From a virus, in the IMG/VR virus record IMGVR_UViG_3300025929_000014, positions 1 through 64,000 of that record: a stretch of 64,000 nt of DNA; one strand, written 5' to 3'. The translations under genes were made by a program, and so were the position numbers. Below, in pieces: positions 1 through 59,866 of the stretch (the first letter of the stretch is position 1; every line of letters starts with the position of its first letter). Below the pieces are notes generated by a model. It saw only the letters and a program-made list of their open reading frames with translations. It was not told the origin of the DNA and made no database searches.

Positions 1-2509
1 TCAGCGCGGATTTCGGCAGACAGACCGCTACCTTCAGGTGCGTGTATTTCTCGACCTCGCCCTTCCAGTTGAAGATGGTCGCCGACGGCACAATGGCCAT
101 CGCCTTCTTGGCGGTGCCCATCTGGCGCCGACGGCAGAAGGACGCCAGGGAGGTGGCCGTCTTGCCCAGTCCCATGTCCAGGGCCAGCATATTACGATCC
201 CTGGCGGCGCTGAGCGAGGCGCCATATTTCTGGAAGGCGAAGAGTTCCCGGCCGCCTTCAGCAACCGTCTTAAAGTCTGGTGGATGCTCCCAGGCTGGGG
301 GCGGCGCGTTATTGCGCGCGAACTCGTGGGCAGCCGCGCGAATGACATGCGGATGGATATTGTGCTTGGGGAAGTGCTCCATGGCCGTCGAAAGCTGGCC
401 TGGATTGAAGCTGATGGTGCCGCCCTGCTTCTTATAGCCCGGTAACGTTTTGAGCTTATCCAGCGTGGGGTTGCCAGTCTTCTTGCCCTGGTCGTTATAT
501 TTATCGTCACGTTCCACGCCGCCATACTGATGGAACGTAGCCTTGCCGTCCTGATGATCGATGCGATCATAGGGCTTGCGCATCTCGAAACGATTTGCGT
601 CATACTCCATGCTATGCGGGCTGTGGGCGTAGCGCTCGGCACGGTCGGCGAGCCGCTCCAGCTTGGTAGCCGAGTCGTTATGACCCTGCGCCTGCTTGCG
701 CAGCTTCTTCTGCTCGTCATAGTTGCTGAGGTTGCGCGCGATGTCGTTGATGTCGGTGGCGATTTTACGCTGCCGAGCGGCGCGCTTGCCCAACTCTTCG
801 CTGTACTGCGTCAGCGCAGATTGATCGGAGATATGCGATTCACCGGCTGGCCGCATGGCGGCGACGGCCGCCTCCGACCAGGGGATCGCCAGATCCTCCT
901 GCCCATCCAGCTCCTGCGCCTTGTTGAAGAGCGCGCCGGCCGGTGTGTCGATGGGCGTGCAGGCTTCGGGGGGCAGCTCGGCGTCGGGCGGCATGACATT
1001 GGTCGCAGCCATCGCGTCTTGCGGGGAGGTGCCATCTGGCGGCATTTCCCCTGGATGCCCAGCACCCTGCGGCTGTTCTGGTGCTTCCGCATCACCGTAA
1101 TTGTCGCCGCTGCCGGCCATGCGCTCGTCGCCGACGATCTCGCTGCCATCCATCAAGGTGCGTGGATTGACGGAGAAGCCGGGCAGTTTACCGATGGCGT
1201 TATGCAGCTGCGTCATCGGCAGCCGCCAGGTATCATCGCCGTTCGGATTGTATTTCTTGCCGTTGAACTTATTGCCCGGCAGCTCTTTGACGGCATCCTT
1301 GATGCTGTTGAACTCCGGGTCGCCGTAGGGGCGTTTCCAGGCTGCGCCGAACATGCCGGGATCGCCGACCGGGTAGAGGCGGTCGCCGGTCTGCTCGCGG
1401 TGCGCCAGGATATGCTGATCGAGGTTCTCCGGGTGGCGCGCGATATCCTCCAGCGTGTCGGCGTGGCGATTGAAGGCGTCTGCCTCTTCGGGAGAGCTGG
1501 CCATACGGGCGCGCTCGCGCAGCACATTGGCGTGCTGCAGATGGCCCTCGTGCGCCGGCTCCAGGGGTGGAGCGGGCGGCGTCAGGATGCTCTGCGGCTC
1601 TTCCGTTTCAGGAGCCGGTGTTTCGGGCGATTCCTCTGTGGAATCAGGTGCCATGTCGTCAGCAGGCCCCGCAGTGTTCGGCAGTCGCGAGTCTGCGGAC
1701 CCCTCACTATTGTCAATAGGAGGATTTTCGGGGGGACTGCCACCTCCCGGCGCTGCTGACGGTGGCGTTTCGGGCGCCGCACCAGCAGGCCCCTCAGCCG
1801 GAGCTGAGGCCCCAGAGTCCAACGCATCTGGATTTTCTGGCGCTGCTGATGGAGGCGGTTCTTGGGCGGGCGCGGGCTGCGCTGCAGGTTCTGGCGCCGT
1901 TGGCGGCGTTATCCCTGTGGCTGGCGGCGCTCCTGTATCGGCCGGTTCCGGCTGGGGAGAAGGGGACACAGCCGGTTCCGGTGGGGGAGCAGGGGTTGCT
2001 GGGGTCTGCCCTGTCGTCTGCGGCATTGGGGGCGCAGGCTCTGGCGACGCTCCAGCTGGTTCGGGTGCTGCTTGGTGCTCGTTATTGAGCTTATCCATCA
2101 CCGGCTGCGGCAGGCCGGCTTCGATTTTCTTGGTGTTTTCGTCGATCAGCACATGGCGCCCTTCGCCCTCGCCGGCATTATTCGGGTGGATGGTGATCCA
2201 CTGCATGCCGGGCGGCGTCGAACTGGAAGCGGCCGTGTGCTTGGCGTCGTAGGCGCTCTCCTGCTCGGTGTGGCGGGCCTGCATATGGGCCAGATTGCCA
2301 AAAAGGCCGATGGGGCGGCTGGCGATCTTCGCCAGATCCGGCTCCTCGTCCAGGAACGGCACCGGCTCGCCGAACACCGCCTGGCGCTGATAGGCTGCCT
2401 TGAGGAGCGCTGGATATTCGGGGCTGTCGGCAGACACGACGGTCGTCGAGCGAATGAGACTGCCATCGACGGTCGGGTAGCGGCGCGTAATGATCAGGGC
2501 TTTAGGCAC
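1..2509 (-). CDS. Large virion-module polyvalent protein (partial, runs off left edge): N-terminal WITIHP motif, Pro-rich linker, two HARP-like repeats, SNF2 helicase
   Basis: Not in the ORF track because it has no stop in the window. GTG at 2509 overlaps the portal stop and is open for 836 codons. Translates to ...WITIHPNNAGEGEGRHVLIDEN..., ...IKDAVKELPGNKFNGKKYNPNGDDTWRLP... and ...NMLALDMGLGKT...AIVPSATIFNWKGEVEK (SNF2 motifs I and Ia). Confidence 0.85.
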   Translation of the reverse strand, partial: MPKALIITRRYPTVDGSLIRSTTVVSADSPEYPALLKAAYQRQAVFGEPVPFLDEEPDLAKIASRPIGLFGNLAHMQARHTEQESAYDAKHTAASSSTPPGMQWITIHPNNAGEGEGRHVLIDENTKKIEAGLPQPVMDKLNNEHQAAPEPAGASPEPAPPMPQTTGQTPATPAPPPEPAVSPSPQPEPADTGAPPATGITPPTAPEPAAQPAPAQEPPPSAAPENPDALDSGASAPAEGPAGAAPETPPSAAPGGGSPPENPPIDNSEGSADSRLPNTAGPADDMAPDSTEESPETPAPETEEPQSILTPPAPPLEPAHEGHLQHANVLRERARMASSPEEADAFNRHADTLEDIARHPENLDQHILAHREQTGDRLYPVGDPGMFGAAWKRPYGDPEFNSIKDAVKELPGNKFNGKKYNPNGDDTWRLPMTQLHNAIGKLPGFSVNPRTLMDGSEIVGDERMAGSGDNYGDAEAPEQPQGAGHPGEMPPDGTSPQDAMAATNVMPPDAELPPEACTPIDTPAGALFNKAQELDGQEDLAIPWSEAAVAAMRPAGESHISDQSALTQYSEELGKRAARQRKIATDINDIARNLSNYDEQKKLRKQAQGHNDSATKLERLADRAERYAHSPHSMEYDANRFEMRKPYDRIDHQDGKATFHQYGGVERDDKYNDQGKKTGNPTLDKLKTLPGYKKQGGTISFNPGQLSTAMEHFPKHNIHPHVIRAAAHEFARNNAPPPAWEHPPDFKTVAEGGRELFAFQKYGASLSAARDRNMLALDMGLGKTATSLASFCRRRQMGTAKKAMAIVPSATIFNWKGEVEKYTHLKVAVCLPKSAL

Positions 2510-5213
2510 AGAGACGCTCCAGCTCTTGATCGAGCGAACGGAAATAAGCAAGCACGTCGGACGGCATGCGCGTGGGGTCGGCCGCGTAGTGCTTGAGGGC
2601 ATCGCCGAAGAAGGCTTCGGGGTCGGTCTCGGCACCGCAATACTTGATGGAGAGATCGCACCAGGCCGGGCGATAGGCGAGCGAATCCAGCTCCAGACAG
2701 AGCGCCTGACCCGCCAGGGCGATCACATCGTCGGGATCGGCGTCGGCATAGACGCGGATGGATTTCTCCGCCCAGGAGAGCGTGCCGGAGACGTGCTCGG
2801 TGCCGCGCAGGGCGATGGCGGGATCCACCTCCACCTTGTAGCCACGCTTGGCGAGGAAGCGATCAATGGTGCTGGGCATGGCGACTTTCTTGCTGCTGTT
2901 GGGCTTCTTGGGTGCCAGTTTGGCCATCTCTTTGGCCCGCTCATGCTGCAGGGCGCCCTGTTCGAGCTGGTGGCCATGTTGCTGATCGGCCTGGCGGCTG
3001 CCGTAGACGAACTGGCGGCCCTGCTCTTCCATCCGGTGGCCGTGCTGGGTGGCCAGCTGCGTTTGCTGGTTGGCACCTTGCAAGCCGGCCTGATGACTGG
3101 CTGATTGCAGTGCGTAGCCCTGCTGGGTAGCTGCCTGCTGGCCCTGTAAACCGGCTTGATGGCTGGCCGACTGGAGCGCGTAGCCTTGCTGGGTGGCGGC
3201 TTGTTGCCCCTGGAGCCCGGCGCCGTGTTCGGCTTGGTCGAGGGTCTGCTCGTGCTTTTGATCGGCTGCCTGGCCGGCGAGTCCAGCTTGATGCGTGGCC
3301 TGGTCGAGCGAGTAGCCATGCTGCTGGGCCAGCTGGTCGGCCTGTTGTGCCGTCTGCAGGCCCGATTGATGCGCCTGTTGGGCCAGCGTCAGCGCGTGCT
3401 GCTGATCCTGCTGGTCGCCGGCGATCCCGGCCTGTTGATCGGTCTGATCGGACTGCAGGTCGGCGCCGTGCTCGGCTTGATCGATAGCCAGGCCATGCTG
3501 ATGGGTGGCCTCGTCGATGCCCAGCTCGTGCTGGTGGCTGGCCTGCTCCAGCGACATCTGATGGCGGAAAGCAGCATCGCGAATCATCAGATGGTGGGCA
3601 TGTTCCGCTATCTGCTCCTGGCTCTCAACGTGGGCCTGTTGCTTCTCGTGCTCCAGGTCCACCTGCTGATCCTGCGAGTCGGCTTCCACCTGGGCCTGGT
3701 GCTCGGTCTGCTGTTGCTGCAAGCCGGCCTTATGGGTCTCCATATCCTTTTCGAGACCATGTTCATGCTCGGCTTTGCCTTGCTCGGCCTGTGCGTTATA
3801 GGCCTGCCAGCCCATCTTGTCGATGGCCGCCAGGTCTTTCACGCCGAAGAGGCTGCCGCCCATCTGCAGGAAGTAGCCGGTGCCGCCCGGATCCAGGCCC
3901 AGTTCCAGCAGCATATCGTCGTGCGAAATCTGCGCGCTGAGGAACTTGTCCTTGAGCATCGACGCCTTGGTAGCGGCGTCTTCTTCTGAAAGGTCCGGCC
4001 AGATCCAGCGGAACTCGCCGAGCCCAAACTCTTTGAGGAGCGGCGTGAAGAGTACATCGGCCAGCCAGTTGGCGAGCGGTAGCAGCGAGCGCCGAAAATG
4101 GACGCCCTCCTGCGCTTGCGCGTGGCCGGAGCCGCCCAGCCCTTCGGTGTTGCTGGGTGCCAGGCCCAGCTCCTGCCGGGTGATATCGAGGCAGACGCAG
4201 GTCAGGTCGATGATCCAGTTGGCGATTTCAGAGCCAAACTGAAGGTACGCCTCGCCACCATTCTGGATAATGGTCTCCACGCCGTGCGGCATCATCTCCA
4301 TCACGCGGGCGTAGCGCGGATCGCCGGCCCGGATCTGGTCGCGCAGCGTCATCAAATCGTTGATCTGATCAATGCTGTAGTTTTCGGGAGCGGAGAGCAA
4401 CGCCTGCGGGATGTTGCCGTCGGTGAAGATGGCGGTCACCCAGGAGCGATGCCGCAGCGCCAGGTTAATGAGCGTGAGGAACTGTTCGATAGGCGAGAAG
4501 CCGTAGGGGGTCCAGACGCGCCTGGTCTTGGGCAGATAGAGCAGCTCGTCGCGCGTGAACTCGTAGCGGTTGACGCCGATGATCACCTGCTCGTAGGCGA
4601 TGGCGGGCGGCTCCGGGCGCCTGCCTTGCAGGTTAATCAGGGGACGCACCAGGCTGCCATCTATCTGCATCAGGGAGTGCAGCTTGCCGTTTTTGGTGGG
4701 CCGCTTATAGATGGAGAGCGCGTCGATCACCAGCACATCTTCGATACACTGGCGCATCCAGGTCTGGTAGTCAAGATCCTTATCGGGGGACTCCCAGAAC
4801 TCGCGCAGCTTATCGATCTTGGGACGCGCCTTCTTCATCATCGCGCGCTGTTCGGCCGTCGTGCCGGTCTTAGGCCGCACATCCCAGGAGAGGCTGCAGA
4901 TCTCGTCCTTGCGGATCTCGATGGCTTTGCGTGCCAGATAGTCCAGGTCGGCCATGGTGCGTAGGGTGGCGAAATTGACGCCCCGATCCGTATCGGGATT
5001 CGCCTGCAGGTTCCAGCCGACGCGGAAGAACTGGGAACGCGGCAGCCCAGAGGCGTCGAGGGGTTGCGCCTCTGGGGGGATGCCGGGTCCGAACTGTGAA
5101 CTGATGTCGCCGCCGCCAGCAACTCGGTTAATGAGTTCCTGCTGGAGCGGGTTGACCACCGTGCCCTTCGGCAGGCCGGTGAGCCGTTTTATGAGATCGG
5201 GGAGAAGAGCCAC
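2502..5213 (-). CDS. Portal protein with long H/Q-rich coiled-coil extension and C-terminal metallopeptidase-like domain
   Basis: N-terminal ~450 aa has portal-type motifs (FTRDELLY, PYGFSPIEQ, FTDGNIP) and lies just downstream of terL. GTG start with upstream AAGG/AGG. Confidence 0.85.
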   Translation of the reverse strand: MALLPDLIKRLTGLPKGTVVNPLQQELINRVAGGGDISSQFGPGIPPEAQPLDASGLPRSQFFRVGWNLQANPDTDRGVNFATLRTMADLDYLARKAIEIRKDEICSLSWDVRPKTGTTAEQRAMMKKARPKIDKLREFWESPDKDLDYQTWMRQCIEDVLVIDALSIYKRPTKNGKLHSLMQIDGSLVRPLINLQGRRPEPPAIAYEQVIIGVNRYEFTRDELLYLPKTRRVWTPYGFSPIEQFLTLINLALRHRSWVTAIFTDGNIPQALLSAPENYSIDQINDLMTLRDQIRAGDPRYARVMEMMPHGVETIIQNGGEAYLQFGSEIANWIIDLTCVCLDITRQELGLAPSNTEGLGGSGHAQAQEGVHFRRSLLPLANWLADVLFTPLLKEFGLGEFRWIWPDLSEEDAATKASMLKDKFLSAQISHDDMLLELGLDPGGTGYFLQMGGSLFGVKDLAAIDKMGWQAYNAQAEQGKAEHEHGLEKDMETHKAGLQQQQTEHQAQVEADSQDQQVDLEHEKQQAHVESQEQIAEHAHHLMIRDAAFRHQMSLEQASHQHELGIDEATHQHGLAIDQAEHGADLQSDQTDQQAGIAGDQQDQQHALTLAQQAHQSGLQTAQQADQLAQQHGYSLDQATHQAGLAGQAADQKHEQTLDQAEHGAGLQGQQAATQQGYALQSASHQAGLQGQQAATQQGYALQSASHQAGLQGANQQTQLATQHGHRMEEQGRQFVYGSRQADQQHGHQLEQGALQHERAKEMAKLAPKKPNSSKKVAMPSTIDRFLAKRGYKVEVDPAIALRGTEHVSGTLSWAEKSIRVYADADPDDVIALAGQALCLELDSLAYRPAWCDLSIKYCGAETDPEAFFGDALKHYAADPTRMPSDVLAYFRSLDQELERLCA
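3087..3218 (-). repeat. Two tandem 66-bp units encoding the identical 22-aa peptide GLQGQQAATQQGYALQSASHQA
   Basis: Read directly from the sequence. 14 of 22 codons differ, all synonymously. Confidence 0.95.
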
Positions 5214-5282: not shown

Positions 5283-5807
5283 TCAGCCGGTCAGCTGAGA
5301 GGCCAGGGCGCATTCCACGCAGATGCCATGCAGCAGCAGCCGCTCCACGTCACAAGCAGCACAGGGGGCTACCGTGATCGACGCCGAGCCATCGACGGAG
5401 ATCGTCGCCGGTTGATGATCATAGAGTAACCGCAACGGCATCAGCGCGCCTTCGGGCAACCCGGAGAAGACGCGCTCCAGATACCGGGCAGGCATCCCCA
5501 GGATGGAGGAGACGAGCTGCACGAAATCGGCGGGGCGAATAAGGGCCACCACCTGATCCATGGTAATCATGGTCTGCTCGGTGCCGGTGAAGAGATCGTC
5601 TACCGGCAGGGTATAGAGCGGCAGGCTGTTGGCCGGCAGCTGCCCGGTGCAGGCCCAGCATGCCTGTTCCACCCGTTCCTGCCACAAATAAGCGCCCTGC
5701 TGGCAGCTCGCACAGATGCAGCGCCCAATGATCCGTTCACAGCTACAGATGATAATGCCGTGCCGCGCGACCTCCACGTCAGCGCAATCCATAGTCGTCT
5801 CGTTCAT
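5283..5807 (-). CDS. Cys-rich hypothetical protein between terL and portal
   Basis: ATGA overlap with the terL stop gives start MNETTMDC. Several CxC/CxxC motifs. Confidence 0.65.
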   Translation of the reverse strand: MNETTMDCADVEVARHGIIICSCERIIGRCICASCQQGAYLWQERVEQACWACTGQLPANSLPLYTLPVDDLFTGTEQTMITMDQVVALIRPADFVQLVSSILGMPARYLERVFSGLPEGALMPLRLLYDHQPATISVDGSASITVAPCAACDVERLLLHGICVECALASQLTG

Positions 5808-7099
5808 GCTATTTTTCCCTCTTGCGCGGCTCTGAGCAGCTCGTTGTCGAGCTTCTCCTGCTGCATCTGCGCCACGCGCATGCGCAGATACTCCACGTAG
5901 CCATCTTCTTTCCCACAGGCTTCCACTGTGAGAGCCAGGGCCATGACACAATCATCAAACATGCCGTCCGGCGCCCCGTAGCGGATGAGGCCGCTAGGGA
6001 GACGTGTGGAGTCATAGGCTAGCAATTCACCGAGCAATATGGGATCGTTCAGTATGGCGACGGCCTCCCGCTCAAAAAGCAACGCGAGATTATCAATAAT
6101 GCGCATCTTGCTGGCGTTGGTGGTCTGAAACGGTGTGATGTAGAGCTTGTCGCGCCGCAACTCCTCGATAATCGGCACGCCAATGCTGTTCTCTTCTGCC
6201 ACGATGGCGGTAGGGCGATACCGCTCACAGAGGACTTTGAGCCTGTCTCGCTGCGTGTGATAGTCGAGCTGGTTGGACCGTTCCATATGGACCATTCGCA
6301 TGGCCCGGATATCCATCACGATCATCACGGTAAAGTCGCGCCGTCCCCAATCGACGCCAATGGCATAGCGGCTGCCATCCTGTGGCGCTTCGGGCAGCGC
6401 TACCGCGCAGGCTTTGACATTGCGAAAGACAGCCGTGCCATCCGCCAGGAAAGCGGCGAAGATTTCCTGCTGCGCTGCCCGTTCGGTGAGATCGAGCAGC
6501 ATCTTCTCGATCTCGGCGGGCGGCATATAGGGATTGGCATGCGTCGGGTAGGTGCGGCTCCACCATTCGGGCTTGAGTGCGTCCTGTCCATACTGATAAA
6601 GCGTATGAAAGTCGTTGAGTCCGTTGGGCGTGGAGTAGAAGTCCGCCGAGCCTTCGAGATCGATGAGTGTCGGCCGGATGACCTTCTCCCAGGTATCCCT
6701 GAGCTTGGACACATGGGCGGCCTCGTCTACCCCAATATGCTTGTACTTGCGACCGCGCACCACGATATCGCCGTCGAGCGACCACATCTCGATGGACCCA
6801 CCCGACGAAAGATCGATGCGTTTGTCCTGTATCGAGACGCGCGTTGAGATCGGCCGGGCGCGCTCCTTGACATCCTTCCAAACCTCTGAGAGGAGCTTGT
6901 AGTTGGGTGCGAACCAGGCGACGGGATAGCCCTGAATCGCCGGCATCAAGAGACGATAGATGCCGAACATGGATTTGCCGAAGCGGCGGCCACAGTTGAG
7001 GACGTTGAACCGTTGACATTGCGCGAGAATGTCCTTCTGTGCCGGGTGAAGGGCGGGCACCCTACAAATAATCTCAGCCATTGGCCGATGGCTTCCCAT
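5804..7099 (-). CDS. terL: Terminase large subunit
   Basis: Walker A CGRRFGKS, Walker B IGVDEAAH, RNase H-like nuclease motifs IGVDWG and FDDCVMALA. The start may be ATG 7081. Confidence 0.95.
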   Translation of the reverse strand: MGSHRPMAEIICRVPALHPAQKDILAQCQRFNVLNCGRRFGKSMFGIYRLLMPAIQGYPVAWFAPNYKLLSEVWKDVKERARPISTRVSIQDKRIDLSSGGSIEMWSLDGDIVVRGRKYKHIGVDEAAHVSKLRDTWEKVIRPTLIDLEGSADFYSTPNGLNDFHTLYQYGQDALKPEWWSRTYPTHANPYMPPAEIEKMLLDLTERAAQQEIFAAFLADGTAVFRNVKACAVALPEAPQDGSRYAIGVDWGRRDFTVMIVMDIRAMRMVHMERSNQLDYHTQRDRLKVLCERYRPTAIVAEENSIGVPIIEELRRDKLYITPFQTTNASKMRIIDNLALLFEREAVAILNDPILLGELLAYDSTRLPSGLIRYGAPDGMFDDCVMALALTVEACGKEDGYVEYLRMRVAQMQQEKLDNELLRAAQEGKIA

Positions 7100-7285: not shown

Positions 7286-7556
7286 GGGGAAATTGTGGGG
7301 AAATTGCGGGGAAAAAATGCTAGCGGGGAGATGACGCTGGGTGAGTTATGGGTCTGTAGGTAGCAGGGTGACAACATTCCACCAGAGGAAGTTGACCATA
7401 ACGCATGCGCGCCAGAGGAGGCAAAAGGGGTGCGCCCCAACTTTTAATCAAGGTGTCCTGGGTTCGAGTCCCAGTGCCCTCACCAGAGTAAATCGGGCGG
7501 GAGAGCAGGGCTCAGGAAGAGGATTTCAGGGGAAATTGCGGGGAAATTGCGGGGAA
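7286..7556 (+). mobile_element. attP: core = 3' half of tRNA-Lys(UUU) at ~7440-7485, flanked by 11-bp-period GGGGAAATTG(C/T) arm repeats (7286-7314, 7529-7556)
   Basis: CTTTTAA anticodon loop, then TCAAGGTGTC, T-arm CTGGG-TTCGAGT-CCCAG, and TGCCCTC-A-CCA. No 5' half is present. The same repeats occur on both sides, and the integrase is about 1 kb away. Confidence 0.88.
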
Positions 7557-7558
7557 TC

Positions 7559-8044
7559 TCACGTAGTTTTCTGCTCGATGGTCCACATGAGATCGGGACG
7601 AGCAGGCAGCATCGGTCGTGGCGCCTGCTTTACAACGAAGCGGTTCGCCAAGTCCTGCGCCTTAGCACGCACCCTTGCTAGCTCGGCCGTCAGCCTGTCT
7701 ATCTCGTGGCCGTCTTCCGTCCAGGCTTTACCGAGATCCTGATAGTCGTCCATCAGCTCTTTGGTCTGGGCGCGTGCTGTATCCCGGTCATGCTCGGCCT
7801 CATAGAGGGCTGCCAGGAGGGTGAGCACGTCTTCGCGGGCATGCAGCACAAACGCCAGATCCTCTTCGCGCTCGAAGGTGCCGGGCGTGCCGCCACAGTT
7901 GCGGCAACTATTATCCATGATGGTCTCGCCTGAACCATCGACGATGGAGAGAGGACCACAGTACCCAGAATACTCCGTATCCCAGATGCCAAAACTGGCA
8001 GCCTCAGCGCGTGCGTGTATCTCTGCTCTCTGTGCTTCGGTCAT
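7559..8044 (-). CDS. Ead/Ea22-like phage protein
   Basis: IHARAEAASFGIW...DLAFVLHAREDVLTLL pattern followed by a coiled coil. Confidence 0.55.
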   Translation of the reverse strand: MTEAQRAEIHARAEAASFGIWDTEYSGYCGPLSIVDGSGETIMDNSCRNCGGTPGTFEREEDLAFVLHAREDVLTLLAALYEAEHDRDTARAQTKELMDDYQDLGKAWTEDGHEIDRLTAELARVRAKAQDLANRFVVKQAPRPMLPARPDLMWTIEQKTT

Positions 8045-8599: not shown

Positions 8600-9796
8600 C
8601 TACCTCCCATCCAGTCGCTTGAATATCTTCGCAGCGTCTTCACTGTCCTGCGTTTCGGAGAGCTTGGCATAATGGAAGACCATGGCCGGCGTCTTCCAGC
8701 CCATGCGGCCCTGCATGCCCTTGATGGAGACCTCGCCGCCAGCGAGCGCGTGCGTCGTATGCGTGACACGCAAGTCATGGAAGCGAATCTTCGGCACGCC
8801 GGCTGCGAGGATCAGGCGCTGAAACGCGCGATACACGTTGCTCATGCCAAGGAGGGTGCCATTTCTTGAGGGGAAGACCAGATCGTCCGGCTGGGCGTCC
8901 ATCGGGCGGTGCGCCCTGAGCGCGTCGGCCGTATCGGCGTCGATAAGCACGCTGCGATACCCGTCGCCGCCTTTGGTGAACTGATGATGATGGGCAGGGC
9001 CGGAGTCGCTGCCGGTAACCGCTTCAACGACGTGTACTACTGCCATGTTACCAGGTCTGGTGGTCGCCAGGTCGATATTACGCCATTTGAGTGGGATCAG
9101 CTCGCCCTCGCGCATGCCGGTGTAGGCCGCCAGGCGCCAGAAGGGGCCATACTGATGCCGGTCGGCGACCTCCAGGAAACGCTGCAGATCATCGATCTTC
9201 CGCCAGTAGGTAGGCTGCCGCGTCACTTTCACCCTGGGCCGCTTGACGCCCTGGAGCGGATTGGCGCCCAGTTCGTGGCGCTCCAAAGCATCGGAGAGGG
9301 CCGACGAGAGCACCGCCCAGACCAGGCGCCGGGTGTTGTCGGCGACCGGCAATCCGGTGCGGTGATTGTTCAGATCGTCCAGCAACTTGAGGCAGTGCGG
9401 CGCGCGAAGCGCCTGCAGCTCAATATGGCCGATGGCGGGGATGATATGCGTGCGGGTGATCGAGAGATAGTTCTCCCTGGTATTTTCGTTCTGGATACGG
9501 GGCAGCCAGGCCAGGAGGTAGGCGCCGACCGAGCATTTGCTGGGCGCCACCAGCTGGCCCTTGCCGACGGCGTTGCGCAGGCGGGCCAGCTCGCGCTCGG
9601 CCGCCGCTTTGGGATCCGGGTCCGTGCGCTTGGAGAAGGTGCCCACCTGGGACCGCTTGGTGCGGCCGTCGAGATAGACCATCTCCGCCTTCACAACCCA
9701 GGTCGTCACCTCCACCATGGCGCCCTGCAGGCGCTTGTTGCGGCGCTCGTAGGTGCGGGCTTCCATCCAGTAGCGAATCGTGCGTAGGGCATCCAT
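8600..9796 (-). CDS. int: Tyrosine integrase
   Basis: TGMREGEL (R), FHDLR (H-x-x-R), GW in place of GH, and FHYAK (Y). N-terminal arm-binding and SAM-like domains. Confidence 0.95.
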   Translation of the reverse strand: MDALRTIRYWMEARTYERRNKRLQGAMVEVTTWVVKAEMVYLDGRTKRSQVGTFSKRTDPDPKAAAERELARLRNAVGKGQLVAPSKCSVGAYLLAWLPRIQNENTRENYLSITRTHIIPAIGHIELQALRAPHCLKLLDDLNNHRTGLPVADNTRRLVWAVLSSALSDALERHELGANPLQGVKRPRVKVTRQPTYWRKIDDLQRFLEVADRHQYGPFWRLAAYTGMREGELIPLKWRNIDLATTRPGNMAVVHVVEAVTGSDSGPAHHHQFTKGGDGYRSVLIDADTADALRAHRPMDAQPDDLVFPSRNGTLLGMSNVYRAFQRLILAAGVPKIRFHDLRVTHTTHALAGGEVSIKGMQGRMGWKTPAMVFHYAKLSETQDSEDAAKIFKRLDGR

Positions 9797-9805
9797 GCAA
9801 GCATG

Positions 9806-10006
9806 TTAGCGTGCTACGTGGTTCTTGACCACTCCCCGATTCGCATCCAGCCAGGCATCCAGGAGGCGCTTGGAGTACAGGGCCTTATAGCCCATGTTAG
9901 TGACGCGCGGCCACTCCCCCTTTGCCTCCTGCTTGGCCACGAAGTTGACCGAGCAGCTAAACATGTCGGCCACTTCCTGGCGCGTCAGCAACTTGTCGTC
10001 CGGCAC
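9806..10006 (-). CDS. xis: Excisionase-like winged HTH
   Basis: GTG 10006 after GGGAG. LLTRQEVADMFSCS...WP...Y...LDAWL pattern, adjacent to int. Confidence 0.75.
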   Translation of the reverse strand: MPDDKLLTRQEVADMFSCSVNFVAKQEAKGEWPRVTNMGYKALYSKRLLDAWLDANRGVVKNHVAR

Positions 10007-10163
10007 GTCTTTTCTCCCAACACCATACACAGTAGCAATGGAAGCCGCCCGTAGGCGACGGAGGCCAGACACGGCACGCCATGCAGACCTCCTGCCCGCA
10101 GTCATCGCACGCCAGCACGCAGGGAGAACCCTCCCCGCAGCCGGCGCACTCACCGGTCATGAA

Positions 10164-10718
10164 TCAGCTGTACACCCATTTTTCTGGGTGCCCTGTCTCC
10201 TGCAGCTCGCTCATCAGCTTTTTCAACCGTGCCACCTTGGTATCGGGATCGATGAACTTATTCCAGGCGCACTCCGTACAGACGAGCATCACACCTTCGC
10301 CCATTGGAGCATCCTCGAAGACTACTTCACTGAAGCAGATATCCGGCTCTGCGGGAGGTTCCTGGAGCGCCTTGGACTCCTCAATATGGCGCAGCGTATG
10401 CACGCGCCCCTCCTCGAAGCCGACCTTGCGTCCGTGGTCCATGCCCGCTACGTAGCCATCCTGGTGGCCATTCATGTAGTGCTCTTGCAGCTGGGCGAGG
10501 GTAGGCGGCGCGACCACAACCGGCTCCGGCTCCGGCTCGACATGCGTGGTGGCGGGCTTCGGCTGCATAGCGTCAAGCTCCCGCAAGAACTTTTCGATAT
10601 CGAAGATGGGCACCTGCTGCGGTACAGATGGGATAGTGAACTTCTGAACATAGCCCAGTTGGGGATTACAGGCCGAGCAACCGCCCGGACGATTTATTGT
10701 ACACATGCAGATACCCAT
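10164..10718 (-). CDS. Hypothetical protein with GxxxG repeat helix and Cys motifs
   Basis: NGHQDGYVAGMDHGRKVGFEEG. AGGAG SD. Confidence 0.6.
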   Translation of the reverse strand: MGICMCTINRPGGCSACNPQLGYVQKFTIPSVPQQVPIFDIEKFLRELDAMQPKPATTHVEPEPEPVVVAPPTLAQLQEHYMNGHQDGYVAGMDHGRKVGFEEGRVHTLRHIEESKALQEPPAEPDICFSEVVFEDAPMGEGVMLVCTECAWNKFIDPDTKVARLKKLMSELQETGHPEKWVYS

Positions 10719-10730
10719 GATTGTTCTCCT

Positions 10731-11150
10731 TTATGCTTTGCGCGGCTCTAAGAGAGTCAGCGTCCAGTGCTGTTTGTCGTCGTCTTTATCCAGCGTCCAG
10801 GTCCAGTCGGTAAGGAACTTCAAGAGATGCTTGAAGAACGTATCAAACTCTTTGCCGGAAGGATCGGGGCTCGACAACTCTATTTGTAAGGGATGCGAGG
10901 GAAAGTTCAGCTTGGATGCCTTTTGCGGGAGGCCGCTATCTAACATGATGCGGCGAGAGACCAGATACTCCTCAGCCGGCGAATACTCCCTGGGCGCCTT
11001 GTAGACTTGTACGAAACGACGCCAGGCATTATAGGTCTCTGGATCGCTCTGGGCTTCTTTCCAGGACGGCCAGTAGGCAGTCGCTGGATAACATGCTCCC
11101 AGCGTTTCGTACGTGTGCTGGGCCTCCAATTCTATCTGTGCTTCAGTCAT
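10731..11150 (-). CDS. Hypothetical protein
   Basis: Coupled ORF in the operon. Confidence 0.55.
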   Translation of the reverse strand: MTEAQIELEAQHTYETLGACYPATAYWPSWKEAQSDPETYNAWRRFVQVYKAPREYSPAEEYLVSRRIMLDSGLPQKASKLNFPSHPLQIELSSPDPSGKEFDTFFKHLLKFLTDWTWTLDKDDDKQHWTLTLLEPRKA

Positions 11151-11365
11151 GTGCGCACACCCCTAAACCCGACCGGCAGCGGATTGCCGTTCGTCGGAAC
11201 GCATCCACAACAGAAATAAAAGTGATCGCTGGTGTAGACGTAGATCAGGTTCTTGCATCCTGTACAACGATGGACACCTGATTGCCTGGGAGCATCGCGC
11301 ACCTCCTGACCGCATGCGGTACAAGCAGAACCTAGATGCGCGCTACAGCGGTAGCACTTACTCAT
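11147..11365 (-). CDS. Small Cys-rich zinc-finger protein
   Basis: Multiple CxxC motifs. Confidence 0.55.
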   Translation of the reverse strand: MSKCYRCSAHLGSACTACGQEVRDAPRQSGVHRCTGCKNLIYVYTSDHFYFCCGCVPTNGNPLPVGFRGVRT

Positions 11366-11375
11366 CTGTTACCCC

Positions 11376-11819
11376 CTACTCGAAATCCCACCGATGCTTT
11401 TCATCGAGGCGCTCACATTCTGCATCCCATCTATGTGCGGAAATAGCCTCGTAGCACTGCATGCAAAGATGATCGGCCGGACAGCCGAACGACCGCTTAA
11501 TGAGACTGGTCGAGTACACCTTCCCGCAACAGGCGCAGCGAAAAGTAGCCTTACCCGCCTTTTCGCAGCTCTGGCAAAGATGCTCATCCTGCTCGTTCGT
11601 CGCCGATGACTGTAACTCCCAGCCGGCACGCTTCAGCTGCCGCTCGAAGGTCACCATGCAGTAGTGCGGAAAGGGGCGCCCATTCCACTTAGCTACCATC
11701 ACCTCATGGCATTCGGCACAGCGCTCCGCCTCAACCAGCATCAACGCATAGGCCGCTCGCCCTGGACTCTCCAGGAAAATAGAGGGCGTAAAGGTCTCCA
11801 GGTCTTTTTCGGTGTTCAT
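11376..11819 (-). CDS. Zinc-finger protein
   Basis: Four CxxC pairs. GGAGGA SD. Confidence 0.6.
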   Translation of the reverse strand: MNTEKDLETFTPSIFLESPGRAAYALMLVEAERCAECHEVMVAKWNGRPFPHYCMVTFERQLKRAGWELQSSATNEQDEHLCQSCEKAGKATFRCACCGKVYSTSLIKRSFGCPADHLCMQCYEAISAHRWDAECERLDEKHRWDFE

Positions 11820-11985
11820 TTGGGCCTATCCTCCAGCTTCTTTAAGCGCTCCTCCACATCAGCCAGGCGCTTGCCGAGCGGCTTACGCGCCCGAAGCGCG
11901 GACGATGCGCGCTCCACCAACTCCTTGGACGTGACATTGAGCACATGCAGAGCGGCCGCCTCCAGCATGCGCGCATAGGGCTGCT

Positions 11986-12888
11986 TCATGAACGAATCTC
12001 CAGCCAGCCCTGTAAAAATGGAGCGTGGCAGCACACGGCGCCGGAGCCGGCGGCTATCAAATTGGTGGATGGACCCGTAGGCGGCAGGGTGAGCAGCGCA
12101 TCGCCCTGCATCTCGTAGGTCTCGATGGCGAACTCCTCATGCTCCTGGATCAGAAACTCGCGCTCGCGCCAGTGCGCCGGCCACGCATAGGAGAGGGCGA
12201 AGACATGCCCGACCGGCAACTCGTTGCCGCAGATGATGGGGATGTCGAGCGGGGGTGGAGGGCGATTACGTGAGAGATTGCCCCAGGCGCGATAGGTGAG
12301 CCTGGGATCGGCGCGCTCAATATGCTCCTCCAGCCGAAATGGCCCATGTCCCTTCGCGTCCATAAGCATGAAATCAGTACAACGCTGCACGATCTGATGC
12401 TGGAGGAAATGAGCGTCGCGATGCGACATGGCGAGCACGTTCGGCAACGCGTCGCGCTCGGCGATCATGGTCAACAGAAGATCGACGACGCCATCCAGGA
12501 GGCCATCCTGCGAGGACACGCGAAAAGTGGCGCCGGAATGGGCCATCGCCATCTGGCAGAGGAGACCATAGTACGAACAGGTATTGGCTTCCATTGGTGG
12601 GGTCGGCAGCCCGCCCAGGGCATAGAGATTGGGATCGAGGTGGCAGGGGAACGCCGCTTCGGGCAGCAGGCGCTGCTCCGGGCAGGAGAGGAGCAGGTTA
12701 TGCTCCTCGAAGCGGGCGCGCTCCCGGATCAGGGTATCCGTCATCTCCGCTACAGCATCGCCGGGTCCACGATGATACTGCGCCTCATAAGAGACGCTGC
12801 CGGGCACCGACCAGCGCGAGATGGGCAGCTGGAAGCGCAGATAGGAGCTGGGCGAGGTCCAGATGCGGGAAGGAATACTACGTATCAC
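11986..12888 (-). CDS. N-terminally truncated, divergent major capsid protein paralog (core/C-terminal part)
   Basis: Motif order SVSYEAQ / FEEHNLLL / YYGLL / DALPNVLAMS / LPVGHVFALSYAWP / GAVCCHAPFLQG matches, by recollection, an HK97-fold MCP family of high-GC phages. Confidence 0.6.
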   Translation of the reverse strand: MIRSIPSRIWTSPSSYLRFQLPISRWSVPGSVSYEAQYHRGPGDAVAEMTDTLIRERARFEEHNLLLSCPEQRLLPEAAFPCHLDPNLYALGGLPTPPMEANTCSYYGLLCQMAMAHSGATFRVSSQDGLLDGVVDLLLTMIAERDALPNVLAMSHRDAHFLQHQIVQRCTDFMLMDAKGHGPFRLEEHIERADPRLTYRAWGNLSRNRPPPPLDIPIICGNELPVGHVFALSYAWPAHWREREFLIQEHEEFAIETYEMQGDALLTLPPTGPSTNLIAAGSGAVCCHAPFLQGWLEIRS

Positions 12889-13199
12889 GGCGTGGACGCC
12901 GCCATGAGCGCCTGACGCCGATCAATGATCTCCTGACAGGTCAGATAGGAGAGATCGCTCTCACACCTACCTCCCCCTAAAATGGCCGCCAGACCAAAAC
13001 AGTTCTGACAGATTCCGGTAAGCCCCGACTGAACATACGAGCCAGAAGCGGAGCGTATCAAGGAACGCTGCCATAGTACACAATGATCATTCGCGATAAA
13101 AAGGTCGTCCGCCTCCAGCATGCGTTCACACAACGCATCATGTACAGGATCGGGCGAATATGCCCACGAAATATGATTTTCAGGATCAGGAGATGGCAT
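12885..13199 (-). CDS. Hypothetical protein
   Basis: Coupled between the two capsid-like ORFs. Confidence 0.5.
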   Translation of the reverse strand: MPSPDPENHISWAYSPDPVHDALCERMLEADDLFIANDHCVLWQRSLIRSASGSYVQSGLTGICQNCFGLAAILGGGRCESDLSYLTCQEIIDRRQALMAASTP

Positions 13200-13776
13200 C
13201 GGTAATCTGGCTCCAGGTCAGGGCTGCACACCAGCGCTGGATCTTCTCCGGCGAGAGGCCCTGCGTGTGATAGAGGTGGCGGACGTAGGCGCGATACTTG
13301 TCCGGGTTGGAGGGATCATAGATGGGCGGCGCCTCCACCACGATGATGCGTGGCTGACGCTCAGCTGCGGGGCGCAGGCCGATGCCAGAGAGGAGATCAT
13401 CCTCCTGCCCCAGTATCTGGGCGCGAAGCTGCTCACTGATGCGCTTGACATAGGGATGCAGATCTATGTCAGGTGCCGGCATCAGCGAGATCTCGCGCAG
13501 CTGCATCTCACCATCCTGGTTATAGGAGTAGCCGGCCGAATAGAAGTTGCGGATGGGGCGGAACTCGACGGCCTTACCGGAAGCCGGCACACGAGGAATC
13601 TTGTTGCGCAAAGGCGTGAAGCTGAAGGGCTCACCCTGCACGAGTTTCGTGGTAAGGGGAAGTAACTGATAATCCGAAACTAGCTCAGATAGGGGAGGAG
13701 CATAATGAAGAACCGATTGAGCGTACAAGCCTTCCATCGCCCGAATGAGCTGGTCTGGCGGTCTTACTTCATCCAT
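13186..13776 (-). CDS. Short capsid-N-terminus-like protein
   Basis: YQLLPLTTKL..FTPLRNKIPRVPASGKAVEFR resembles the YDL..PAK.L.P..TPLRN.IPR N-terminal motif of the same MCP family. Confidence 0.5.
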   Translation of the reverse strand: MDEVRPPDQLIRAMEGLYAQSVLHYAPPLSELVSDYQLLPLTTKLVQGEPFSFTPLRNKIPRVPASGKAVEFRPIRNFYSAGYSYNQDGEMQLREISLMPAPDIDLHPYVKRISEQLRAQILGQEDDLLSGIGLRPAAERQPRIIVVEAPPIYDPSNPDKYRAYVRHLYHTQGLSPEKIQRWCAALTWSQITDAIS

Positions 13777-14023
13777 CGCTCGCCTCGATGGCGGCCACCG
13801 CTAAAGCGGCCACCTGGACCAAACGGCGCTGACATAATTCCGGGCAGTTATCTTCACTCGCTTTCTGAGCCTCGCCGGCATAGCGCGTGATGTATGCAAT
13901 CCAATCGTTAATGCTGTGCTGCTTATCGTGGATCTCCCCACCCCACCGACCATTCTGATGCAGGCGTTCCGCCTCAATCGTGCTGTAGATGCTCGACCTG
14001 CCTTTGCGCACTAACGCATCCAT
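13769..14023 (-). CDS. MazG-like all-alpha NTP-pyrophosphatase-fold small protein
   Basis: ERLHQNGRWG...YAGEA...LVQVAALAVAAIE. Confidence 0.55.
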   Translation of the reverse strand: MDALVRKGRSSIYSTIEAERLHQNGRWGGEIHDKQHSINDWIAYITRYAGEAQKASEDNCPELCQRRLVQVAALAVAAIEASDG

Positions 14024-14239: not shown

Positions 14240-14608
14240 TCAGATTCCATCCGGCAGATCCTCCAGCTCGGTGACATTGTTCCAGATCGAACGGGGGACG
14301 CCATTTTTGGAGTCCACCCAGCGCAGGCGCACGAACCAACCCCAGATGAGGCCGATGGCGGCCCAATCGACGCCGTTTGGCGCGGTGAGCGCTCCCAGCC
14401 AGGCAAGACCGAGCAATGCCAGCGCTGAAGCTATCGTCGAAAGTGCCATATGTGCGGCAGTGATGGCCAGCCGCTTGCCGAGCGGGTTGATGTTGCAGGC
14501 CCACCAATGAATGCGCGCATGGCCGGCGCTGCAGATGAACGAGTTATCCAGCTCTGCGGAGGTAGATGCTCGACAAACGGGGCAAAGATCTTTCACGTAG
14601 TCACCCAA
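14240..14608 (-). CDS. Zn-ribbon plus membrane-segment protein
   Basis: CPVC...CSAGH followed by hydrophobic helices. Confidence 0.5.
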   Translation of the reverse strand: MGDYVKDLCPVCRASTSAELDNSFICSAGHARIHWWACNINPLGKRLAITAAHMALSTIASALALLGLAWLGALTAPNGVDWAAIGLIWGWFVRLRWVDSKNGVPRSIWNNVTELEDLPDGI

Positions 14609-15318: not shown

Positions 15319-15822
15319 CTAGTCGGGCGGCGGCGTGGGCGTGGGCGTGGGCGTGGGCGTGGGCGCCTCAGCCTTGCCGTGTAGGGCAAGGTAGGCGGCG
15401 CGTGCGGCAAGCGTGGGGGAGACGGGCTCGTGCTCGATGACGGGCTGCGTGGGCGCGTACATGGGCATGCTGCTCGGCTCATCTACCTGAATGATGATCG
15501 TGGGCGCGCCTCCACCCATGCCACCGGGCACGCGCTGACCATAGCGTTCCGGCCACAGGTGCTCAAGGAGGAACATCAGCAGCTTGGTGTTGCCGCCTAG
15601 TGCCTGGACGTAGGCCGTCTCCTCAAGGGGTACAGCCATGTTGCGCGGCGCCATGATGTCGTCCCACGCGGCGGCGAACTCCGGGTCGTCACGCCACATA
15701 TAGGGCGTGGTGCGGTCGATCTTGAGCTGCTCGGCCACATACTTGACGCGGCGGTGCTTCTCTAGTTCCTGTAGGAATAGGGCTTTCCGCTCAGCGACCG
15801 TTGTCGGGAGTGTTGATGTCAT
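15319..15822 (-). CDS. terS: Terminase small subunit-like protein
   Basis: KALFLQEL..HTH..RTTPYMWRDDPEFAAAWD...KLLMFLLEHLWPERYG, typical of phage TerS-like HTH proteins. ATG 15822 lies 6 nt after an extended -10. Confidence 0.7.
   Translation of the reverse strand: MTSTLPTTVAERKALFLQELEKHRRVKYVAEQLKIDRTTPYMWRDDPEFAAAWDDIMAPRNMAVPLEETAYVQALGGNTKLLMFLLEHLWPERYGQRVPGGMGGGAPTIIIQVDEPSSMPMYAPTQPVIEHEPVSPTLAARAAYLALHGKAEAPTPTPTPTPTPPPD
15332..15365 (+). repeat. (GGCGTG)n hexamer repeat encoding the Pro-Thr tail of TerS
   Basis: About 5.5 perfect copies. Confidence 0.9.
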
Positions 15823-15934
15823 ATGTCCAGTGTAGCAGGGGTGCGCCATTCGCGTCCAGGTAGGGCGCCACGCGCTGAAACGCCCCTTGCCAGTCTCCTA
15901 GCATGGGGCGTTGCGTGGCGGCTGTTGTAGCGCG

Positions 15935-16162: not shown

Positions 16163-16265
16163 GGCCTGGACTCCTTGGCTAGCGGTGCGTCTCACTGACT
16201 CTAGTATGCGGCTGAATGTCTCCCCCTTGCAACATTCGCGCTACAAGGGGGAGACGGTCGGCGGC

Positions 16266-16469
16266 TTAGCAGCGATGGTAGTGGTACGCGTCATTCGCTT
16301 GGCGTGTCTCGCGCTGGATATTCGCCCAGCACGCGTTCTGTGCGTAGCAGGCCATGGTCGCCTCGTCCATCGTGCGCACGACTATGGGGCGCTCGATTTG
16401 GAGCGTATCGACCACGATGTAGACCGTGCGGAAGATCCGGCGTGACATGCGGACGGTGAAGCGTGCCAT
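16266..16469 (-). CDS. Early hypothetical protein
   Basis: AAGGAG SD after a cassette. Confidence 0.65.
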   Translation of the reverse strand: MARFTVRMSRRIFRTVYIVVDTLQIERPIVVRTMDEATMACYAQNACWANIQRETRQANDAYHYHRC

Positions 16470-58610: not shown

Positions 58611-59866
58611 CCGGTGTGGTGCTCTGGCTGGCGCTGTGCGGCGCACTGCTCTTTGCAGGCGTCTCCATCGCTTACGCGCAGCCGGCGAATGCGTTGCGTA
58701 CGGCAGTGCTGCGGCTGCAATGGGACTGGACGCAGTATCGTTGGGGGCCGATAAACCATTACGTCTGGACTAACTACTATGCGTCAAAGCCGCCGACCTA
58801 CAGTTCTGTGTGCTGGCCGAAGGCGGGAGGGACCGGTTTCGATTGTCCCTACGATTGGCCGGACGCCCAGCTGCTTCCGACCCGGTACGAGCCATGAAGA
58901 TTCTCTGGAAGTTCCTTGACGGGATCTATCTCGGAGTCGTCCTGTGGGCAACATTCGCGCTGCTGGTCGAGGGGCAGCAGCAGCACCAACTCTGGTGGGC
59001 ATTGGGGGTCGGCATCGGCATAGGGGAACGCTACGCGCGCTGGATCTACACGAAGGAGGCATGACATGAAAGTAAAAGGCAATGATCGACACATCCACGT
59101 TGGCCCAAGAATTGCGCATCGTCCAGGAGAATCTCTCCGCTCCCTACGTCCAGCTGGATCGCCTGTACCGGCGTTACCGTTCGACACGTTTGGCTGCCCT
59201 GGCCCCAATCTTAGGTCACTATCAGGCCATCAACAGCCTGTTGGCGGACCTGATAGCGGACCTGAAGAACGTGCCGGCGCCCTTGCTCGCCGGGGAGGAT
59301 TGCGATGAGCCTGGCGCGCATCCAGTCGGTGCCTGATGTCACGTTCCAGTATGTGCCGCTCTTCTTCTGCGGCTGGTGGATGCTCTCCGCCCATGCGCGC
59401 ACCTATCCGCCCAGGTGGCTGACGTTAGGCTGGGGCTTTGCTCATAGCCGCATGGCCGCTATCTACAAGGCAGAGGCCATACTGGAGAACCATGGCGCCC
59501 TGCAGCCGCCTCCGGTGGTGTTCCATGGGTAGGCCCATTGAGCGCTTCTACGCCTATCGCGGCGAGCTGAATGTTGATTCCGTGCAACATTTCATGGGTG
59601 CCATTTGGAAGGACTACAACCGTACATCGCCGGATGCGCTGCGCTGCGCAAAGGGGACGGCGCTGCTGTTACGCCGCTCGCTGCCGGCATATCTGTATTT
59701 TTACGCCGACATCAATTTCCTTACAGATGACACGATTTCTGCCGTCGTCAATCCCATGGACGGTAGGACGGTGCCTATCGAAGTGGACGGCGATCTCCCC
59801 CTTGGCACCTTCCTGGCAGAGCGGGATGGCGAGTATTGGGCGCTGGTGCCGGAGGCGACGCTATGA
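58598..59866 (+). other. Small CDSs (58598-58897 secreted, 58894-59064 membrane, 59082-59336, 59305-59532, 59525-59866)
   Basis: Coupled ORFs. Signal/TM segments in the first two. Confidence 0.55.

Follow-up and report, generated by a model that had tools for sequence, protein, structure and literature searches.

Gene organization of the locus

The DNA analysed here, referred to as the window, comprises bases 1-64000 of IMG/VR virus record IMGVR_UViG_3300025929_000014, a 105,786-bp record of an uncultured temperate phage, rated complete by CheckV. Its minus strand carries two open reading frames (ORFs), ORF A (11986..12888, 300 aa) and ORF B (13186..13776, 196 aa), which encode partial relatives of the phage's own major capsid protein (MCP): A contains the HK97-fold core of the MCP, and B contains a region homologous to the MCP N-terminus followed by an unrelated tail. 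The analysis shows A and B to be accessory genes in their own right, both descended from an HK97-fold MCP of the phrog_13692/SU10-like lineage to which the true MCP also belongs; there is little doubt that both derive from a capsid protein. A preliminary description made from the letters of this DNA had placed two truncated MCP paralogs at 11986-12888 and 13186-13776, and both ORFs are present there on the minus strand. They are intact, as described, but they are not directly coupled to each other, because a 104-aa ORF (12885..13199) lies between them.

A and B belong to a chain of five minus-strand genes in which stop and start codons overlap at all four junctions. The chain opens with an 84-aa gene (13769..14023) that matches phrog_2831, a family of unknown function (E 3e-10), and whose stop overlaps the start of B in the sequence ATGGATGA. 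The end of B overlaps the start of the middle ORF by 14 nt, the stop of the middle ORF overlaps the start of A (GTGA), and the stop of A overlaps the start (ATGA) of a 57-aa gene (11816..11989, from the ATG at 11989), which is the last of the chain examined and has no family match. The whole chain shares a block with xis and int, away from the head operon, and none of the genes neighbouring A and B has an informative Pfam or PHROG match. The codon usage of A and B is phage-like, with G+C contents at third codon positions (GC3) of 0.75 and 0.69, respectively, and the correct frame scores best. The middle ORF, which encodes several cysteines including a CxxC pair, is atypical (GC3 0.52 versus about 0.7 in its neighbours); it has no MCP similarity and no homologues, including by tblastn against INPHARED, and could be a recent acquisition or a spacer that is open by chance.

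A separate major capsid protein

The long minus-strand arm that contains A and B runs from about 41 kb leftwards and through the record ends. Past the ends come a 1641-aa ORF, a 487-aa homologue of head maturation proteases and, behind the latter, a 510-aa protein (95398-96930, minus strand, outside the window). This protein is 36–38% identical to Tsac_2859 of Thermoanaerobacterium phage THSA-485A, whose gene follows terS, terL, a portal gene and a protease-like gene and which defines phrog_13692, matching its profile end to end (E 2e-188). The 510-aa protein is taken as the true MCP of the phage, separate from A and B. The preliminary description had expected the true MCP to the left of the window, which is where it lies once the record ends are joined. 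A distinctive element of the MCP is an insertion of ~160 aa (about residues 160-320), presumably a surface or insertion domain, which is absent from A and from the metagenomic relative P0018 described below.

Assignment to the SU10 family proper is less direct. None of 15 alignment members, the true MCP included, matches PF17236 (SU10_MCP) at E <= 0.01, and the pointers to that family are a precomputed label on P0015 and the labels of ESM Atlas clusters.

ORF A retains the capsid core

All motifs quoted in the preliminary description are present in A and B, and in a MAFFT alignment with the phage's own MCP and 11 MCP homologues they share columns with the matching MCP motifs. In A these are SVSYEAQ (residues 31-37), FEEHNLLL (60-67), YYGLL (106-110), LPVGHVFALSYAWP (224-237) and G..VCCHAPFLQGWLEI at the C-terminus. 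Direct comparison with the true MCP, which that description had proposed as a check, yields collinear matches for both proteins. For A, BLASTP aligns residues 21-74 with MCP residues 107-161 (E 1e-3) and residues 266-296 with 474-504 (E 0.06), and overall identity is only about 21%. A profile built from A and its relative P0002 matches the MCP profile at E 2.6e-6 through the C-terminal 80 residues, placing A residues 214-296 on MCP residues 427-504. A has no direct PHROG match and no Pfam match.

A search of the genome's complete set of 1547 six-frame ORFs with a hidden Markov model (HMM) of the MCP places only the MCP itself, B (4e-5) and A (8e-4, in three collinear pieces) above the inclusion threshold. 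That the two best non-self matches are neighbours is not chance. Below the threshold, a stop-to-stop frame at 59429-59863 (plus strand), overlapping the 5' end of a Dam methylase gene that is read in another frame, matches MCP profile positions 340-425 at E 0.024; this is probably a chance match.

The anatomy of A follows from these alignments. It spans MCP residues ~107-510 but has neither the N-arm nor the ~160-aa insertion domain and keeps little of the E-loop; it begins at the column of MCP residue ~100, in the last E-loop strand (LRFQLPISRW), in agreement with the earlier observation that it lacks the N-terminus. From there, A proceeds through the SxSYEAQY strand, its own spine helix (FEEHNLLL), a proline-rich linker that occupies the place of the MCP insertion domain, the A-domain and the C-terminal P-domain strands to a natural C-terminus. 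Nothing in A corresponds to the TPxRNxxPR motif or to the first strand of the E-loop.

Structural evidence comes from an ESM Atlas model of A, with a predicted template modelling score (pTM) of 0.60, and from an AlphaFold2 (AF2) model made for this work, with a predicted local distance difference test score (pLDDT) of 56 and good confidence only for residues 110-250. The Atlas model resembles viral clusters of 457-567 aa with template modelling (TM) scores of 0.69-0.72 and SU10_MCP and PF05065 clusters with scores of 0.60-0.63, and an Atlas feature search links A to SU10_MCP clusters with a score of 0.93. In an exhaustive VIA scan of the AF2 model against 48,161 chains, HK97-fold capsids and encapsulins account for 49 of the 50 highest-ranking chains (Z 4.6-7.1), over alignments of about 160-180 residues; the remaining chain is PF0899 (2pk8). 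Each of these Z scores is below 8, a range that the tool calls common, and the evidence is the uniformity of the list. Together, the models indicate that A adopts the HK97 fold, with the predicted arrangement of spine helix, A-domain and P-domain. Sequence searches of the Protein Data Bank (PDB) with the MCP and A profiles return no match.

ORF B retains the capsid N-terminal region

B starts at the same point as the MCP and comprises the N-terminal helix, the TPxRNxxPR motif (TPLRNKIPR, residues 54-62), a shortened E-loop and the spine helix (QEDDLL, 123-128). The homologous part ends at about residue 132, leaving B without P- and A-domains. BLASTP aligns B residues 9-131 with MCP residues 9-155 (28% identity, E 6e-8), and hhalign against a 12-sequence MCP profile gives E 1e-6 and a probability of 91%. 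The match to phrog_13692 (E 1.7e-4) is confined to the TPLRNKIPR segment (profile positions 54-82 of 491), tblastn against INPHARED recovers only a 32-residue motif segment of THSA-485A Tsac_2859, and there is no Pfam match.

Beyond this region, B carries a tail of about 65 residues (133-196), predicted to form two helices and devoid of MCP similarity. Models of B are poor (AF2: pLDDT 46, pTM 0.20; Atlas: pTM 0.28, with no meaningful matches), a result that fits a segment extended in real capsids and proves nothing. The MCP origin of B is thus argued from homology of its first ~130 residues.

Relationship between the two ORFs

A and B both carry the 'EE(D/H)NLL' motif of the spine helix and overlap by about 50 residues on the MCP map. 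Since both hold this motif and overlap instead of abutting, they do not represent one gene cut in two. A single gene split by an intron or read through was likewise rejected: although A and B share a reading frame, 8 stops in that frame interrupt the 297 nt that separate them. An Rfam search of this gap finds nothing at E <= 10 save a chance match to a long non-coding RNA, and the window as a whole has no Rfam match at gathering level and no tRNA. A reading of the middle ORF or the B tail as a frameshifted MCP remnant finds no support (hhalign probability <1%; all-frame tblastn no better than E 0.5), and a resemblance of the start of the middle ORF to the 'MPxWYPGSDI' region of the MCP, over 23 residues, is not significant (E 0.22). 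A and B could have arisen by partial duplication or by two separate captures.

Relatives and maintenance of ORF A

Relatives of A were sought among ~15 billion proteins, including an exhaustive HMMER search of 1.84 billion representatives. The closest, P0002 (307 aa), is 44-45% identical to A over the full length and has the same truncated start; invariant blocks shared by the two include LPISRWSVPG and VCCHAPFLQGWLE. P0002 matches phrog_13692 at E 1e-5, through its C-terminus only. The second relative, P0018, was found by the exhaustive search with the A profile (E 4.6e-14) and is a 335-aa metagenomic 'mini-MCP' encoded on a 1.6-kb Logan contig. It matches the MCP profile end to end (E 7e-20, probability 99.2%) and phrog_13692 at E 5e-14, and the only parts of the MCP missing from it are the first ~40 residues and the ~160-aa insertion. 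By matching both the A profile and the MCP profile, P0018 supplies the decisive link between A and the MCP family. A further hit of the exhaustive search, P0019 (1685 aa), was rejected as an ankyrin-repeat false positive. Scans of IMG/VR with the A and P0002 pair, with B and with the MCP alignment yielded no loci; scans of JGI metagenomes and GTDB genomes with the A family and tblastn of A against INPHARED found none.

P0018 is the nearest unsplit relative of A, and both lack the insertion domain. In P0018, the N-arm motif (LTPLRNRIPR) and the core reside in one polypeptide, whereas here they are divided between two genes, with the spine helix on both. The term 'paralogs' used in the preliminary description overstates the closeness of A to the phage's own MCP: at ~21% identity to that protein, A stands nearer to the mini-MCP lineage.

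The architecture shared by A and P0002 also bears on whether A is maintained. In a simulation of neutral substitution, only 0.45% of sequences keep an open frame at the divergence that separates the two. From this value, the open frame and the common truncated architecture, we infer that selection probably maintains A in its truncated form. The preliminary description had held three outcomes against the idea of repurposed capsid fragments: no HK97-fold similarity, no other MCP in the genome, and decay in relatives. The analysis finds the opposite in each case, with an HK97 fold predicted for A, a separate MCP, and a close relative, P0002, that is intact with the same truncated start.

Genomic setting and transcription

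The preliminary description had located the two ORFs between xis and terS, outside the head module. The location is as described, and the labels 'terS' and 'xis' correspond to weak matches at the level of a helix-turn-helix (HTH). On the minus strand, the order is a terS-like gene, the xis-like gene and the integrase, and then terL. Specifically, the terS-like HTH protein (15319-15849) is a weak call that matches phrog_4044 (E 2e-6) in the HTH region only, the xis-like HTH protein (9806-10153) has a weak match of the same kind, and the putative integrase (8600-9796) is so labelled from the size of its ORF. Further along the strand are a 161-aa ORF directly upstream of terL (7559-8044), which has PHROG matches of unknown function only, terL itself (5804-7099) and the portal gene (2502-5213). 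At its other end, the minus-strand arm starts with a primase gene followed by many small ORFs.

An octamer, GAAWGTTG, occurs in 26 copies in the window where 2 would be expected. Most are minus-strand copies at gene boundaries in the region from 16.2 to 40.5 kb (sites at 16230, 17235 and 17572 through 40532, minus strand, among others). The copy nearest upstream of the five-gene chain lies, with a flanking hairpin formed by an inverted repeat, at 16205..16268 (minus strand). Downstream on this strand, no copy is found between 16230 and 7372, and the copy at 7372 precedes terL. GAAWGTTG is a putative promoter motif, and the block from 16.2 to 7.4 kb, comprising the terS-like gene, B, A, xis and int, may be one transcription unit. 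The motif-free stretch thus raises the possibility that A and B are transcribed with xis and int and not with the head genes.

Comparison with known capsid homologues

A and B share collinear motifs with the phage's own MCP and with phrog_13692, which is distantly SU10-like. They differ from the MCP in that each covers only part of it, at 21-30% identity, and in that neither lies beside a protease or scaffold gene, in the head-operon position that the true MCP occupies; neither matches the phrog_13692 profile over its full length.

Other HK97-fold homologues have been described beside a principal capsid protein. SaPIbov5 Ccm is a complete MCP homologue encoded by a satellite, which forms pentamers, co-assembles with the real MCP and forces small isometric capsids (PMC8569155). 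Like A and B, Ccm is an extra HK97-fold capsid homologue encoded outside the head module, in its case that of the helper. Ccm is complete and satellite-borne, whereas A and B are truncated and reside in a phage with its own MCP.

Encapsulins represent the HK97 fold outside the virion, and some, such as the Family 4 'A-domain' type exemplified by PF0899 (PDB 2pk8), are reduced to part of the fold. They tie with phage capsids as the best structural matches of A (6x8m, Z 7.1; 9bhu, Z 6.9; 2pk8, Z 5.9), and the structural scan cannot separate the two groups; the sequence links of A run to phage MCPs and not to encapsulins. No encapsulin cargo gene is recognised near A or B, where no search was made for targeting peptides.

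The T4 vertex protein gp24 is, like A, a second HK97-fold protein in addition to the MCP, and its structure (1yue) matches the A model with Z 5.0. It is a full-length paralogue of the MCP gp23, its gene adjoins the MCP gene in the head module, and it is a virion component. A and B, in contrast, are truncated proteins encoded in the int/xis block.

Known extra capsid homologues include vertex proteins such as T4 gp24, satellite size-redirectors such as Ccm, and cellular nanocompartments, the encapsulins. The literature searches returned no description of a phage with a pair of truncated capsid fragments in its accessory region, and the apparent novelty is that one phage carries two complementary truncated capsid-derived genes in its integration/accessory block. 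Should capsid assembly or capsid-sensing immunity prove to be their target, the phage would be using its own structural fold as the source of a new class of competition or counter-defence factor. The very small family and the weak structure models weaken the example.

Proposed function and alternatives

The best explanation as a whole, which falls just short of being probable, is that A is a maintained capsid-derived accessory protein, with B as its probable partner and binding to capsid protein as the likely activity. Capsid binding or interference with assembly is a possible mechanism, to be held tentatively. The roles suggested in the preliminary description (dominant-negative blocker, size modulator or immune decoy) are likewise conjectural. 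A keeps the core that forms capsomers and has lost the parts that lock the lattice (N-arm and E-loop), and B keeps much of what A has lost. Through its retained A- and P-domain contacts, A could enter or cap capsomers while being unable to lock into the lattice, and B could fill sites that normally take the N-arm or E-loop of a neighbouring subunit; alternatively, A and B could pair with each other. Shell assembly would thereby be modulated or poisoned, in a related rival phage, in a satellite or in the phage's own head. There are precedents both for an MCP homologue that redirects assembly, namely SaPIbov5 Ccm (PMC8569155), and for interference with virion assembly by prophage proteins (PMC10884400). 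What the plausible roles would have in common is binding to an HK97-type capsid protein, and the roles themselves would rank from assembly interference or modulation through non-functional decay and a minor virion subunit to an immune mimic.

Several points weigh against this explanation. The A family has three members, A, P0002 and P0018, among the ~15 billion proteins, and B has no relatives of its own kind outside this phage. The evidence of conservation comes from one pair, A and P0002, and it is subject to ascertainment bias, as a decayed relative would be missing from the protein database as a 307-aa entry. A direct comparison of A with B detects no similarity and thus supports neither a common origin nor a partnership. 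The structure models are weak (pLDDT 56 for A and 46 for B). In the Foldseek comparison that the preliminary description had proposed, the A model has no significant match (E above 0.1), with capsids and encapsulins heading the lists, and the B model is too poor to search.

A first alternative is decay. An additional capsid gene, or one that was partly duplicated, would have been picked up near the integration module and be breaking up, with A, B and the middle ORF as its leftovers, non-functional but still open. The orphan status of B, the extreme rarity of the family, the atypical GC3 of the middle ORF and the low confidence of both models are consistent with decay, and two pieces whose positions on the MCP map overlap and which flank unrelated sequence have the look of rearrangement debris. 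Against this, A and P0002 share one truncated architecture at 44% identity with the frame unbroken, an outcome reached by so few sequences in the neutral simulation; A and B have phage-typical codon bias; a stop/start overlap at every junction of the chain is unexpected for debris; and the other frames of the region hold no MCP remnants. Decay is accordingly considered unlikely.

A second alternative places the proteins in the virion, where A alone, or A and B as a two-piece protomer, would be a minor component of this phage's own head shell, such as a subunit of a vertex or portal-proximal capsomer comparable to T4 gp24. A keeps the capsomer-making parts of the fold, B and A together span the whole HK97 protomer, and both genes are on the late-gene strand, about 5 kb upstream of terL. 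They are nevertheless outside the head operon, with int and xis intervening before terL, and the known vertex paralogues of the gp23/gp24 type are full-length and encoded beside the MCP gene. With ~21-30% identity to the real MCP, no insertion domain in A, and a spine helix on both proteins that precludes clean complementary halves, a virion role appears quite improbable.

A more specific form of assembly interference, and a similarly long shot, is that A and B constitute a two-part, shell-incompetent capsid mimic that serves as a weapon against a competitor building its head from a P0018-type mini-MCP, either a related phage or a capsid-forming satellite. A would enter the competitor's capsomers and B would block the docking sites of the N-arm and E-loop, such that the competitor's lattice fails to close, while the phage's own MCP, being diverged and carrying the insertion domain, would be spared.

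Least probable is an immune countermeasure in which the fragments mimic unassembled capsid and occupy HK97-fold sensors (CapRel-, Lit- or STAND-type) without triggering them: the retained capsid fold and motifs, the accessory location, the expression proposed to be separate from the head operon and the capsid-sensing defences documented, for example, in bioRxiv 10.64898/2026.01.04.697583 would suit it, but no sensor or host is known for the phage, a mimic would have an equal chance of triggering a sensor and of blocking it, and the literature searches turned up no published capsid-fragment decoy.

Other features of the record

Among the sequencing runs carrying this DNA, one DNA run from a microbial fuel cell metagenome is listed and is the likely source; no RNA run is listed. 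In a second assembly of the same phage, the A and B proteins are identical. Near the five-gene chain, small minus-strand ORFs at 10164-11819 and 14240-14608 are without family match; several are rich in CxxC pairs and have a zinc-ribbon-like look, and the ORF at 14240-14608 contains hydrophobic stretches as well. A GCGTGG hexamer repeat at 15333-15367 gives the terS-like protein a C-terminal (PT)n tail. A minus-strand ORF at 2-2635, at least 878 aa long and with an SNF2-helicase/methylase-like C-terminal segment, runs off the left edge of the record and probably resumes at the right end (104076-105728). Its probable continuation across the record ends makes it likely that the 'linear' record represents a permuted circle.

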